Part shown: piece after piece, positions 44,309-60,773 of the stretch
How positions within the stretch are numbered: position 1 is the stretch's first letter
Layout of the letters: each line of letters begins with the position of its first letter
Origin: Candidatus Poribacteria bacterium
Lineage (GTDB): Bacteria > Poribacteria > WGA-4E > JAJDTR01
Assembly (NCBI GenBank): GCA_965222225.1
Contig: CBDCTK010000002.1
Location: 1,216,001-1,280,000 of the forward strand
DNA length: 64,000 bases
Direction of reading: 5' to 3'
Position numbers and translations under genes: made by a program
Notes under the pieces: generated by a model
What the model was told of the DNA's origin: nothing
Seen by the model: only the letters and a program-made list of their open reading frames with translations
Database searches by the model: none

Positions 44309-45169
44309 ATGTCTTCGTCAGTAGCGCGACTATGCGCTATTCTAGAACTCTCGCGCCCAGCTAATGGTGTTATCGCTTTTGTCTCGGTTATGCTAGGCGG
44401 GCTTTTCGCCGTCAAGGGACAAATAAATCGCCTTGATGATGTTGGGTTGTTGATGGCGGCATTTTCCGCACTACTACTCTTGGCGGCGGGCAACAGCCTC
44501 AATGACTACTGCGACTCTGAAATTGACCGCACCAATAAACCTCGACGCCCAATCCCTTCGGGGCGGATTCAGCGGAGAGAGGCCTTAATCGCCGCCATAC
44601 TCTTAATGGGAGCCGGAATAACGCTCGGGTGTCTTGTCAATCGACACATAGCGATAATCGTTGTGGGCGTTTCCACAAGTTTAATCGGCTATGCACTCTG
44701 GCTCAAACGCACCCCGATGATTGGAAATCTCCTTGTAGGCTTTCTCACCGGACTGACTTTCATCGCGGGGGGTGCGGTTTTTGAGTCCTTTCGAGGGACA
44801 CTTGTACCGGCGACCTTTGCACTCCTGTTTACCACAGCGCGTGAGATTGTCAAAGATATTGAAGACACTGAAGGTGACTTCAAAAACAACGCGAACACAA
44901 TCGCGGTCATCAGCAAATCTGTGGCTGCCTTGATAGCTTCAATTTTTATGGGAACTGTTATCCTATTTAGTCCGGTTCCATATCTGTTGGGCTGGTATTC
45001 ATGGCGTTACATGCTCATGGTTTTTATTGGCGTTGATCTGGTTCTAATGTACCTCCTTGTTCAACTCTGCAAAGATGCCTCAAAAGAAAATAGTTTGCGT
45101 ATCCAGAAGTGGATGAAGTGGGACATCTTGGTCGGACTCGGTGCAATATGCGTTGGCGACTTTGTATAG
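44309..45169 (+). CDS. Digeranylgeranylglyceryl phosphate (DGGGP) synthase-like UbiA prenyltransferase
   Basis: GNSLNDYCDSEIDRTNKPRRPIPSG, LKRTPMIGN and AREIVKDIEDTEGD motifs, characteristic of the archaeal DGGGPS subfamily. Confidence 0.85.
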   Translation: MSSSVARLCAILELSRPANGVIAFVSVMLGGLFAVKGQINRLDDVGLLMAAFSALLLLAAGNSLNDYCDSEIDRTNKPRRPIPSGRIQRREALIAAILLMGAGITLGCLVNRHIAIIVVGVSTSLIGYALWLKRTPMIGNLLVGFLTGLTFIAGGAVFESFRGTLVPATFALLFTTAREIVKDIEDTEGDFKNNANTIAVISKSVAALIASIFMGTVILFSPVPYLLGWYSWRYMLMVFIGVDLVLMYLLVQLCKDASKENSLRIQKWMKWDILVGLGAICVGDFV

Positions 45170-47946: not shown

Positions 47947-48975
47947 CAATTATAGCACCTTACGCACTAAAGATTCCGTCTCCAACAGGGTCGTAGGTTG
48001 GGTTGATCGGGAATCCATTAATAATTGCTCGTCCCCTTAACACATATTTCAGCCCCTTGAAAACTTAACATACGTATGGTATAATTCGCCTATCAAAGGA
48101 ACGAATAGATTAAGCGAACGAACAGTGAGTGCGATGAAGATTTCAATGCGATAGAGTTCCCATAGAAAATCTTGATAATGAATCCTGATTCATACAATTA
48201 CCAAAATACGCCATCCTTACACATTATTCTTCCCAATAAACAACTACAGGATGGGGGGGGTAAAAACTATTCGCACAAAATCGCAGATTTTCGCAGAACG
48301 CTGCATTGCCTTCCAACCCGTGTCATTACGGGTTTCCAAGGCGATTTTTACTAGTAGCTATAGTATGCGACCTGCGGAACTGTAACTCCAAATTGAATCT
48401 CGGAAAGTCAGGTCGAAAAACAGGATAGCCATCAAACAAACGAAGTTTGACCGCGTTGCGCTGACGATGGCAAATCCCCGTGCGTTAGCGCTCCTGGAAT
48501 ACAGGCGAAACGCATCTAAATTTACGACTTTACAAGAAAGAAATCCGGGCTAAGTTTGTAATGCTTTTCTTGGGGATCGTAGGTTGGGTTGAACGGCAAT
48601 CCGTCAATAATCGTTATTCTTGGAGAAGTTTTCGAGTGCCCACTTTACATGTATGTGCCAAAATTTGAGTGAAACCCAACAATAATCGTACATTCTACCA
48701 CCATGAGACGTCCTTTGTAATTGGATGCGATTCTCCGGCGATTTTTGTGCCCCTATGGACAATGGAGAAAACTTGGGTTAATAGTTAAAGGCAGGCATTC
48801 CAAACGGTATACTGGACGACTCTACCGTTAGATTTTTCAAACATGCGGACAACACCAGAAGTCATGACAGGTAGGGAGGGGATGATTTTATTGAGGCCAC
48901 ATTGCGAAGATTCCCGCCTGTCCCATATATATTAGAGGAGTCCCTTGCGCTTCAATTTCAACGGACGTAAAATCA

Positions 48976-49194
48976 ATGATTCTAATTAACGAAGAACTGT
49001 GCAGCTATTGTGGGGCATGTGTCGCTGTCTGCCCGGAAAATATCATCGATTTAGTTGACATTTATCTGAAAATAGATCAATCGAAGTGCACCGACTGCAT
49101 GCGTTGTGTTAAAGGTTGCCCGGTTGGTGTGCTTGCTCTGGAACGCAATGGTAAGGTATATTATCCAGCATATGAAGGGCGGGGATTATTTTAA
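48976..49194 (+). CDS. 2x[4Fe-4S] ferredoxin
   Basis: [12 protein letters not shown] and [12 protein letters not shown] motifs; TAATG overlap with the reductase start. Confidence 0.93.
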
Positions 49195-50386
49195 TGTTCC
49201 ACTCCGAGTTTGATGTTATTGTCGTCGGTGCTGGCCCGGGAGGTTCGATTGCCGCGAAGGTTGCCGCCGAAAATGGCTTAAGTGTTCTGCTCTTGGAGAA
49301 ACGCCAAGAAATCGGTTCCCCCGTTCGCTGAGCGGAAGGTATCGGCACAGCGTCGCTGTGTGAATTTATTCAGCCGCATCCATCTTGGATATCCCAGCAG
49401 ATCAACGGCGGCCGACTGTTTTCGCCTAACGAAACAGCAGCTACACTTGACTTCCCGAGAGCGGGATATGTGCTTGAGCGCAAAGTCTTCGATCGCATAC
49501 TCGCGGAGATGGCAGGAGATGCCGGCCCGAGTTGCTAGTGAAAGCGAGGGTAACTACGGTCACCAAGTCGGACGACGGAGTAGTCAACGGCGTAACCTTC
49601 CGTCATTCTGGTCGTGATTACACCTGTAAAGCCAAAACGGTGATTGCCGCAGATGGAATTGAATCGCAGGTTGCGCGTTGGGCGGGAATTGATAGTACTC
49701 ACGATTTGCGCGATGTGGATATCTGCGCCCAATATTTGGTTTCAAACATTGACATCATTCCGGATCACTGTGACTTCTATGTCGGACGCGAGATTGCTCC
49801 ACGCGGATACATCTGGGTTTTTCCAAAGGGGAAAAACATTGCCAATGTAGGCGTTGGCATTGGGGGCGCCATATCCGGAAAGGGCGGCAAACTCGCCATT
49901 GATTACTTGAATGAGTTTGTAAAACGAAAATTCCCCGATGGCAAAATCTTGGCTCAAGTCGTCGGCTGTGTGCCAGTCGGCGATAGCCTACCCGACATAG
50001 TTGGCGATGGAATCCTCCTAATAGGTGATGCCGCACACCACAGCGATCCCATCTCCGGCGGCGGAATCGCTAACGCAATGTACTCAGGTCAATTCGCAGC
50101 AGAAGCCGCAGTCGAGGGAATCCGAATCGGCGATGTTTCCGCCAAGACTCTTAGCTCCTATGAGAGGCGTTGGAACAAACAAATAGGGAAGCATTTCAAG
50201 CATATATGTCGTATACGTGACGGGCTGTTTAAGTTCAGTGATGACACGTTTGATAGGTGTGCTGAAGTCATATCGAAAATGCCCAGTGAAAAAGTTACCA
50301 TGACACAAATCTTCAAAACCGTGTTAAAACACCAGCCCCGATTACTGTTGGAATTAAGACATTTGGTTCTGGCGGGCTGGGTTTAG
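49194..50386 (+). CDS. Geranylgeranyl (DGGGPL) reductase; in-frame TGA at the conserved Cys and a 1-bp frameshift near 49525
   Basis: [17 protein letters not shown]...[14 protein letters not shown]...[10 protein letters not shown], then [15 protein letters not shown] and [17 protein letters not shown]; archaeal DGGR signatures. Confidence 0.88.
49345..49361 (+). promoter_or_regulatory. Candidate bacterial SECIS hairpin
   Basis: GCACAGC-GTC-GCTGTGT stem-loop; loop begins with G, 20 nt after the TGA at 49329-49331. Confidence 0.5.
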
Positions 50387-50446
50387 TAAGGATGCAGCGC
50401 TTAGAACGTTGGCATTTGGTGATTGAACCGAATCATTCCTATTATA

Positions 50447-51193
50447 ATGCAATCTGATTTTGTCCTCAACTATCTTCAAGAGACCATTACGAGATATAAA
50501 GCGGGATATTTAGTTCTTATCGATCCCGATCAATACTCCGTCTCGGACTGTGTCGAATCAGCTCATCAAGCAGAAGATGCGGGTACCGATGCACTTCTTC
50601 TAGGTGGCAGCTTTCTGACTACCGATCTCCAACCCGTAGCGGAGACCCTGAAAAGAGAAACACGGTTACCAATCATCCTCTTCCCCGGCGACGCAATGCA
50701 CCTAACGCCTCATGCGGACGCCATTTTATACCTCAGTCTTATAAGCGGGCGGAACGCCAACTTTCTAATCGGAGAGCAGGTTAAGGCTGCGCCTAGGCTA
50801 CGACAGTACGGTATTGAATCGATTCCAACGGGATATATGTTGATTGATAGTGGTCGCCAAACATCGGTTGGATTCATGAGTGGGACAACGCCATTGCCCC
50901 GTGACAAGTTCGATCTCGCTTGGGCGCATGCTCTTGCCGCTGAATATCTCGGTATGCAGTTGGTCTATCTCGAAGCCGGCAGTGGAGCAGAATATCCCGT
51001 CCCTGATCGGATGATTGCCGCAGTGAAGGAACACATCAGTATCCCGGTTCTTGTTGGCGGTGGAATCACTACACCTGAAATTGCTGCTCAAAAAGTCGAA
51101 GCCGGTGCAGATTTCATCGTGACAGGTACGGCCATCGAAAATAGTCGCTCTTTGACGGTGATGAAACAGTTCGCCGACGCGGTTCACGGGTAG
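50447..51193 (+). CDS. Geranylgeranylglyceryl phosphate synthase (group II GGGPS)
   Basis: LIDPD, GGS, LFPG, SLISGRN, PTGY, YLEAGSGA and VGGGI motifs. Confidence 0.92.
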   Translation: MQSDFVLNYLQETITRYKAGYLVLIDPDQYSVSDCVESAHQAEDAGTDALLLGGSFLTTDLQPVAETLKRETRLPIILFPGDAMHLTPHADAILYLSLISGRNANFLIGEQVKAAPRLRQYGIESIPTGYMLIDSGRQTSVGFMSGTTPLPRDKFDLAWAHALAAEYLGMQLVYLEAGSGAEYPVPDRMIAAVKEHISIPVLVGGGITTPEIAAQKVEAGADFIVTGTAIENSRSLTVMKQFADAVHG

Positions 51194-59985: not shown

Positions 59986-60773
59986 ATGCCAATTCTAGTT
60001 AAGTCCCTCGTGGAGATTGTAGACAGGGAGGCATGTATTCGCTGGCTAGCTCGCGACCCGATTCATCATCTTATGTTGTTAGGGGATTTATACCCACCTC
60101 TAATTAATGTTCCCGAGGTTTATGTCGCAACTGAAGTGGGACAACTTGTTGGCATAGGGAGCGTGTTTCGCGGCTTTTCGACGCCGTCGGTCATCATTAC
60201 TGAAGACAATCCAACAGTTCAAAACTCACTTCTGACGAGGATGAATAGACATCTTGAAACCGAGTGGATAACGCTTTCAACCTCTGCTTCGTCCTCAATT
60301 CTCTCTAAATTCGGAAAGCGAATCTATTCTCACACCGAACATCAAATGTTGCTTCGTATGCCTATTCCAAAACCAGTGAAACCAGCCCGATTAATTCAAA
60401 AGGGTGAATTCGATGCGTTAAATCAATTTTACAACGAACATCGCGTCGAAGCATGGACGCCGCTGATGTTTGAGATGGGCCCCTCTATGGTGTTTGGTGT
60501 AATGATCGGCTTATTGCAGCTGCCGGCATCCATTTCGTGACACCCTTCATTGCTCAGATAGGCAATGTCTTTACGCATCCCAAATTTAGGGGACGAGGAT
60601 ATGCTACAGCGACAACCGTGGGTGTTACGAATCATTTGCGGCGGATGGGGATTCAAATCATCAGTCTCTTTGTAGTCGCCCATAATACGCCTGCGATCCG
60701 AATCTACGAGCGACTAGGATTTGTTAAAGAGCGAGAACTTGTACTCGCCCACTATGAACCTAAGAGGAATTAA
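59986..60773 (+). CDS. GNAT acetyltransferase (FR47-like; frameshift near 60485)
   Basis: Restoring one base gives GPFYGVWCNDRLIAAAGIH...IGNVFTHPKFRGRGYA...N.PA.RIYERLGF. Confidence 0.8.

Follow-up and report, generated by a model that had tools for sequence, protein, structure and literature searches.

Gene structure at the locus

The 64,000-nucleotide stretch of Candidatus Poribacteria DNA analyzed here (the window) contains a homolog of geranylgeranyl reductase (GGR) in which a TGA, a candidate selenocysteine (Sec) codon, is found where the family has a conserved active-site cysteine. The genome carrying the window, termed G000, comprises 5.70 Mb in 2 contigs and is 94.9% complete. The GGR gene is also split by a one-base deletion downstream of the TGA. 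Its parts are as follows:

49194..50386, plus strand: the whole GGR gene, from the ATG at 49194 to the stop codon at 50384-50386, with the in-frame TGA and the one-base deletion
49194..49526, plus strand: N-terminal part of GGR in frame 0, with the Rossmann motif GAGPGG, the putative Sec codon and the hairpin of the selenocysteine insertion sequence (SECIS); matches flavin adenine dinucleotide (FAD)/Rossmann Pfam families
49329..49331, plus strand: TGA predicted to be read as selenocysteine, residue 46, opposite Cys45 of the Thermoplasma acidophilum GGR
49345..49361, plus strand: predicted core of the bacterial SECIS (bSECIS), with a 7-bp stem and the apical loop GUC, assigned from covariation, folding and a published model
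49526..49527, plus strand: site of the one-base deletion, with a -1 frame shift; a G is present in 9 of 9 congeners
49529..50386, plus strand: C-terminal part of GGR in frame 2, the catalytic domain, ending in the stop codon TAG (Pfam GGR_cat, E 7.2e-27)

Identity of the reductase and of residue 46

Judged by homology, the gene is a GGR, an FAD enzyme saturating the isoprenoid chains of archaeal-type lipids. The cited sections of PMC10821996 and PMC6309074 give the motifs of the family as the FAD-binding GxGxxG, the catalytic YxWxFP, LxGD and GGG, and the sequences GAGPGG, YIWVFP, LIGDAA and SGGG were seen in the translations. For structure and profile comparison we used as query the intact ortholog of a congener (G003, 397 aa), which shares 96% identity with G000 in the N-terminal 111 aa. 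Over its full length this ortholog aligned with the digeranylgeranylglycerophospholipid reductase of T. acidophilum (PDB 3oz2, E 3.9e-82) and matched the GGR of Sulfolobus acidocaldarius with an E of about 1e-34. It scored 242.4 bits with the model TIGR02032, above the cut-off of 158.8, while the two G000 pieces scored 134.5 and 80.5 bits, each under the cut-off because the gene is split. The C-terminal piece of G000 scored 93.5 bits with GGR_cat (PF22578, cut-off 27), and the N-terminal part has 92-96% identity to that of 9 congeners.

Cys47 of the S. acidocaldarius enzyme and Cys45 of the T. acidophilum enzyme (TaGGR) are described, in the sections cited, as an active-site residue located behind the isoalloxazine ring; for the Sulfolobus enzyme this residue is called essential (PMC6309074, PMC10821996). 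Residue U46 was found opposite the cysteine of EIGSPVRCGEG in PDB 3oz2, which is residue 45 of the chain. The original prediction, made from the letters of the window alone, had placed the TGA at the cysteine next to the FAD in the archaeal enzyme, and the alignment with TaGGR agrees with this. At the position of the conserved active-site cysteine G000 does not encode a cysteine; the aligned codon is TGA. On the present reading the active-site position would be retained and filled by Sec, so that a family feature is varied and not lost.

We also looked for a second GGR in G000 that could compensate for a loss of the first. The only other TIGR02032 match, at C2:859227-860201 (129 bits, under the cut-off), is halogenase-like and lacks the cysteine, and was rejected.

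Conservation of the TGA and alternation with cysteine codons

Read with TGA as U, the frame starting at the ATG at 49194 holds the TGA at 49329-49331. The reading PVR-TGA-AEG proposed originally, with a frame that remains homologous beyond the TGA, was recovered. Orthologs were searched first in G000 and 40 relatives, and then in 176 Poribacteria genomes (E <= 1e-20). The first search gave a strong ortholog in G000 and 25 relatives, each with exactly one in-frame TGA. When these 26 orthologs were read base by base, the TGA was found at the same codon in every one (PVR-TGA-AEGI). The frames of all 25 relatives were unbroken and 397-436 aa long; that of G000 alone is broken.

In the second search an ortholog was found in 54 of the 176 genomes. 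All 41 orthologs inside the order of the window carry the TGA. The 13 orthologs outside the order (10 from the same class and 3 from other classes) are all free of stops and have TGT or TGC at this codon. An alternation of TGA and cysteine codons among relatives was what the original prediction would lead one to expect, and this was the pattern observed. Three orthologs inside the order were irregular: the one in G135 has an extra TAG, the one in G087 is truncated and the one in G124 is split over two contigs. For the Cys-type orthologs, identity in the N-terminal 111 aa is 53-69%.

A maximum-likelihood tree of 42 rows was built on the region after the Sec/Cys codon, with G000 represented by its C-terminal piece only. 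In it the 26 Sec forms group as a single clade, supported at 100/99, which is nested within the Cys forms. This fits a single conversion of Cys to Sec at the stem of the order, provided that the root lies outside the group.

By the codon comparison, the sequence on both sides of the TGA is under purifying selection in one and the same frame. The ratio of nonsynonymous to synonymous substitution rates (dN/dS) was 0.046 for the 40 codons that precede the TGA and 0.108 for the 45 that follow. These values come from 24 orthologs (the other 2 contained an N and were left out), with 139 and 174 of the 276 pairs usable and dS undefined or saturated in the remaining pairs. Upstream of the TGA all 40 third codon positions vary, compared to 7 of the 40 second positions.

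Two other explanations of the TGA were ruled out. Contigs of four public runs (X15, X16, X1, and X2), which come from three studies, show no difference at 49329-49331, and together with the presence of TGA in 41 genomes this excludes a sequencing error. A genome-wide reassignment of TGA is excluded as well, since TGA is a normal stop codon in G000, where it ends 784 of the 2330 frames of at least 300 codons.

The hairpin downstream of the TGA

Positions 49345-49361 hold the hairpin GCACAGC-GUC-GCUGUGU, with a distance of 20 nt from the UGA to the start of the loop. The original prediction had described it at this distance, and it was found to covary among the Sec forms and to be weakly paired in the Cys forms. 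In the alignment of the 26 sequences the 7 pairs of the hairpin were formed in 97.1% of 174 cells, compared to a mean of 89.9 ± 1.0 for shuffles and 8.6-59.8% for slid partners. Compensatory changes were seen in 3 of the 7 pairs, in 12 cells altogether (C-G to U-A, A-U to G-C, and C-G to A-U or U-A). More compensatory variants of the hairpin were found in metagenome contigs. The apical loop was GUC, GGA or GGC throughout the orthologs. In the 13 Cys-type orthologs the same columns were paired in 28.6% of cells.

The published bSECIS model has, according to the legend of its Fig. 2, a stem of 4-16 bp that carries a loop of 3-9 nt with a G in its first two positions, a spacing of 16-37 nt from the UGA and a minimum free energy of at most -7.5 (PMC13188914). 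The hairpin described here agrees with all of this, with the loop GUC, a stem of 7 bp, a spacing of 20 nt and a minimum free energy of -9.3 kcal/mol.

Several results weigh against the assignment of the hairpin. None of 500 shuffles reached the observed pairing, the number of compensatory cells or the covariation score, but such shuffle controls overstate significance among related sequences. The folding energy was ordinary compared to shuffles, with z-scores of -0.45 (60 nt) and -1.29 (35 nt). RNAalifold favored another consensus fold (alignment columns 7-33, with the UGA included), which shows zero compensatory change. An extension of the lower stem was without covariation, and 2 of its 4 pairs (22-46 and 23-45) hold in all sequences. 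The outer stem GCGG/CCGC of the G000 fold was not conserved in the alignment and was discarded.

Two Cys forms, L118 and L119 (from G048 and G047), have a hairpin of their own, consisting of GGGAAC, a 4-nt loop and GUUCUC. It is shifted upstream by about 2 nt relative to the SECIS register and has a G among the first two loop positions. Among the outgroups of the Sec clade only G057 is closer than these two forms. Their hairpin could be a pre-adaptation, a relic or the result of chance.

The Sec machinery

The original prediction implied that selA, selB, selC, and selD should be found in the genome, and all four are present. Profile matches in G000 were 601 bits for selA, 343 bits for selB and 364 bits for selD. 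The tRNA-Sec scored 76 bits with the Rfam model and was called as tRNA-SeC with the anticodon tca by ARAGORN. The genes for selA, selB, and tRNA-Sec are adjacent at C2:1590238-1593758. The selD gene (C2:2933348-2934274, L001) itself encodes a selenoprotein, with U at the known Sec/Cys site (...VECAGUASK...).

Across the Poribacteria selA was found in 164 of the 176 genomes, including 39 of the 41 genomes with a Sec-type GGR and 9 of the 13 with a Cys-type GGR; in the 176-genome search it was not found in the Sec-GGR genomes G061 and G087. The distribution of selA, Cys-GGR genomes included, indicates that the Sec trait is older than the conversion of GGR. In the cited part of PMC13582414, Poribacteria are listed among the phyla with Sec-containing group 4 hydrogenases.

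The one-base deletion in G000

Frame 0 of the G000 gene reaches a TAG soon after ...GDAGPSC, and homology resumes in frame 2 from 49529. One G that 9 of 9 congeners have is missing from G000 (GCCGGC-CCGAG against GCCGGCGCCGAG), a lesion unique among the 10 congeners. The original prediction had noted a 1-bp deletion near 49525, taken it for a probable read error, and named pseudogenization as a caveat. The deletion is present, after position 49526, whereas its explanation as a simple read error was not upheld: the runs X15 and X16, both from one study and containing 99% of the words of the stretch, gave contigs that are identical to the window across the deletion, with k-mer depths of 77 and 85. 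We lean towards the view that the G000 gene is a very recent pseudogene of a true selenoprotein gene. The branch of the C-terminal piece of G000 has a length of 0.024, within the range of the congeners (0.0056-0.054), and the lesion, if real, must therefore be very recent.

That the deletion at 49526 is instead a systematic artefact of sequencing or assembly, and the gene intact in the living cell, we regard as rather unlikely. In favor of it, the deletion occurs in none of the other congeners, and the C-terminal piece shows no extra divergence. A near-identical strain, represented by a 1474-nt contig from run X1 of another study (spanning 49111-50500 and 99.7% identical to the window), differs by 3 substitutions and a G inserted behind 49526, and has an intact frame with the TGA. 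X15 and X16 are possibly the source data of the assembly, their platform is unrecorded, and a systematic error would recur in them; this weakens the case for a pseudogene. Single-genome one-base deletions in two other genes, described below, would also fit a modest rate of assembly errors. Against an artefact, the deletion is found in independent contigs of two runs and no alternative contig was seen. The site is not a homopolymer, and GGCGCC has 2018 copies in G000, so that the motif is not generally miscalled. Lesions are seen in relatives too, namely the TAG in G135, the truncated frame in G087, and the TAA in the downstream synthase gene of G008 and G048, and the absence of GGR from most of the order is consistent with an ongoing, real loss.

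Programmed -1 frameshifting at the deletion was dropped as an explanation, as no slippery heptamer was seen and G000 alone has the lesion.

An 80-kb syntenic stretch of G003 was compared with the window. It has 101 stop-to-stop frames of at least 120 aa, 59 of them with a match in the window. Gene-breaking one-base deletions in this comparison numbered two in G000 (GGR, and a GNAT gene near 60485) and one in G003 (UbiA). The GNAT acetyltransferase (59986-60755) is split in G000 near 60485, at a site that is not a homopolymer, and is a single frame of 275 aa in G003, the only genome compared here. The UbiA gene split in G003 (C1:1447452-1448305, equivalent to 44309-45169 of the window) is intact in the other 9 of the 10 members of the genus. 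The module has further lesions: the geranylgeranylglyceryl phosphate synthase (GGGPS) gene contains a TAA in both G008 and G048, and GGR has an additional TAG in G135 and an additional stop at the locus L103.

Alternative readings of the UGA

One alternative is that near-cognate decoding or suppression inserts an ordinary amino acid (Trp, Cys or Gly) at the UGA in place of Sec. Weighing in favor of this are the small size and unexceptional energy of the hairpin, and the fact that Sec is assigned from sequence. We nevertheless find it very improbable: the genome has a complete Sec system, TGA is a normal stop elsewhere, the site is the cysteine position of the homologs and makes a classic Cys/Sec pair, and the hairpin fits the bSECIS model of the SelB type and is specific to the TGA forms.

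Still less credible is a TGA that acts as a true stop, with a product starting downstream of it or with the gene dead throughout the order. The public protein collections do contain orthologs from the order only in N-truncated form, covering 71-87% of the query. A product truncated in this way would, however, lack the FAD-binding GxGxxG motif of the Rossmann fold. The 40 codons upstream are in the same frame and have the low dN/dS given above, full-length frames are found in 25 of 25 relatives, and the TGA is invariant in 41 genomes while neighboring synonymous sites are near saturation (dS about 1.3).

That the hairpin and a T-rich tail serve as an intrinsic terminator or attenuator after a leader open reading frame (ORF) of 45 codons has next to nothing to recommend it: a consensus scan flags 49345-49361 followed by GAATTTATTC as terminator-like, but 3 such sites were found against 3.3 ± 1.7 expected by chance, the "tail" encodes a conserved EFI with GGR homology continuing straight through, and the likeness is a pattern match only, inside a conserved reading frame.

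Altogether, we are confident that the gene belongs to an order-specific Sec form of GGR in which the UGA is recoded by means of a bSECIS, the G000 copy being split by the deletion.

Neighboring genes and the probable activity

Three genes close to GGR bear on its function:

48976..49194, plus strand: ferredoxin of 72 aa, 2x[4Fe-4S] (Pfam Fer4, E 1.4e-15)
50423..51193, plus strand: GGGPS (PcrB/GGGPS), directly downstream of GGR (TIGR01769, NF003198)
44309..45169, plus strand: UbiA prenyltransferase, closest in profiles to the archaeal models for digeranylgeranylglyceryl phosphate (DGGGP) synthase (DGGGPS), with scores under the cut-offs

The GGGPS scored 218.7 bits with TIGR01769 (cut-off 161.55) and 289.7 with NF003198 (cut-off 247). 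Two UbiA prenyltransferases are located 4-6 kb upstream of GGR, one of which is the DGGGPS-like protein; its scores were 221.5 with NF009523 (cut-off 269) and 206.3 with NF009521 (cut-off 296). The stop codon TAA of the ferredoxin shares one base with the ATG of GGR (49194). Upstream of the ferredoxin, the region of about 1 kb at 47950-48975 has only short ORFs, none of at least 100 aa on either strand. The window also contains hrcA-grpE-dnaJ, bamA, and lpxD, and these genes show that its organism is a bacterium. The public runs containing the stretch are mostly labelled as sponge metagenomes.

The 72-aa ferredoxin is the probable electron donor of GGR. We link the two because of their overlapping stop and start codons and because ferredoxin-GGR fusions are found in other Poribacteria. 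The fused proteins (public proteins P0078-P0111) have a Fer4 domain joined to a Cys-type GGR and are 465-480 aa long, and the Cys-type frames of G041 and G042 are 475-477 aa. By Rosetta-stone reasoning, such fusions hint at the separate ferredoxin (48976-49194) as the redox partner of GGR. A ferredoxin gene adjoining GGR has archaeal precedents in Methanosarcina, Archaeoglobus, and Thermoplasma loci, according to the cited section of PMC10821996.

Given the neighborhood of GGGPS, the DGGGPS-like UbiA and the ferredoxin, the activity is probably the reduction of prenyl double bonds, as in DGGGP or geranylgeranyl diphosphate (GGPP). Some observations speak against so definite a role. The query scored under the cut-offs of the equivalog models for digeranylgeranylglycerophospholipid reductase (DGGR; 309.5 against 780 and 179.8 against 580). 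No CarS homolog was found in G000, at its completeness of 94.9%, and a glycerol-1-phosphate dehydrogenase was not identified there, where only generic matches to iron-containing alcohol dehydrogenases were seen. GGR is moreover dispensable in many relatives, being present in 54 of the 176 genomes against 144 for GGGPS.

Inside the order the GGR ortholog is absent from 118 of 159 genomes, and in genus g6 both GGR and GGGPS are lacking in 19 of 20. Most Poribacteria may use another reductase or make unsaturated prenyl-glycerol products. In the Cys-type genomes G048, G057, G056, G042, and G041 GGR and a GGGPS match share a contig and are no more than about 2 kb apart.

In the mechanism that we propose, the active-site cysteine (Cys45 in Thermoplasma, Cys47 in Sulfolobus) would have been converted to Sec at the base of an order that already used Sec. 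As in the standard bacterial route, SelB with Sec-tRNA(Sec) would bind the small hairpin inside the coding sequence (7 bp, with a G-U/G-N loop and its start 16 nt from the UGA), whereby the UGA would be recoded. Sec46 would then be placed beside N5/C4a of the FAD in the role of the cysteine. Electrons would be delivered by the co-encoded ferredoxin, and the substrates may be, with more uncertainty, prenyl chains made by the neighboring GGGPS and the DGGGPS-like prenyltransferase. The insertion of selenium at residue 46, and any catalytic gain from Sec, we infer from the sequence.

Distribution and novelty

When 185,579 species genomes were scanned for the motif E-x-G-x-P-[VILMF]-R-TGA-[AG]-E-G, a search that is blind to other flanking motifs, 61 loci were obtained. 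GGR accounts for 34 of them, 32 from Poribacteria and 2 that are labelled "uncultured bacterium" and share the sequence type. The remaining 27 loci, from other phyla, were judged from their translations to be chance matches to proteins other than GGR in unrelated frames, and were rejected. Metagenome contigs gave 62 loci. Of the GGR-like ones, 27 in number, every one was of the poribacterial type, and the remaining 35 loci were discarded on the basis of a script filter alone.

The public proteins that have 66-95% identity to the query and cover 71-87% of it are missing the N-terminus, with lengths of 283-346 aa. We take these to be Sec-type orthologs from the order. The full-length public matches are Cys forms, and the nearest named match outside the Poribacteria is a Methanocellales protein with 50% identity.

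The original prediction of a Sec-containing lipid reductase not described before is supported by the analysis, and no Sec-containing GGR was found in the literature searched, in which some papers are represented by their titles. Two reviews of prokaryotic selenoproteins, from 2026 and 2022 and both with family tables, do not use the word "geranylgeranyl" in their main texts, and neither do the Global Ocean Sampling (GOS) survey, deep-Sep, and BSepDB, the supplementary tables lying outside this scope. FixC, TIGR02032 and prenyl are likewise absent from the main text of the 2026 review, its Table 1 included. Here a known enzyme family is combined with a known recoding mechanism, and the combination was not found in print.

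This could be, as a tentative proposal, the first selenoenzyme of membrane-lipid (isoprenoid) biosynthesis, with the saturation of archaeal-type ether lipids depending on Sec beside the flavin. If so, lipid saturation would be tied to the selenium supply in one order of sponge-symbiotic Poribacteria, and the debated conserved cysteine of GGR would be a redox-active or nucleophilic catalytic residue and not a passive modulator of the flavin. The natural replacement by Sec would offer a direct handle on the role of this cysteine. It would also add a new enzyme class to the prokaryotic selenoproteome, that of a flavin-dependent C=C reductase of lipid biosynthesis, which is unmentioned in the surveys and reviews searched. 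As the public gene calls are N-truncated (283-346 compared to about 397 aa), poribacterial lipid metabolism is mis-annotated. The wide occurrence of GGGPS in Poribacteria is relevant to the "lipid divide" as seen from the bacterial side.

Comparison with known systems

Bacteria of the FCB group with genes for archaeal-type ether lipids (PMC7852524) resemble the present case in having GGGPS, a DGGGPS-like prenyltransferase, and GGR homologs in a bacterium. They belong to another phylum; the word "Poribacteria" has 0 occurrences in that paper, and in the part of it covered here a Sec form is not mentioned.

The archaeal DGGR/GGR enzymes (PDB 3oz2; S. acidocaldarius 3atq/4opc) share the end-to-end alignment, the Rossmann, YxWxFP, LxGD, and GGG motifs and the adjacent ferredoxin gene. 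The gene described here differs by a UGA, predicted to encode Sec, at the active-site cysteine, by its bacterial host and by DGGR scores under the cut-offs, and its substrate is a probable one.

The Cys-type GGR of other Poribacteria are orthologous, are sister lineages in the tree and in some cases have GGGPS nearby. They differ in having TGT or TGC at the codon and unpaired hairpin columns (28.6%), and some of them are fused to Fer4.

Escherichia coli FdhF is the paradigm of the bacterial selenoproteins decoded by means of a bSECIS. Like bacterial selenoproteins derived by exchange of Cys for Sec, the GGR has a UGA at a catalytic cysteine, homologs with Cys, a 3' hairpin with a G and then U/G in the loop, and selABCD in the genome. 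The bacterial selenoprotein families listed are mostly thiol oxidoreductases with UxxC or CxxU motifs, whereas the GGR described here would carry a single Sec beside a flavin.

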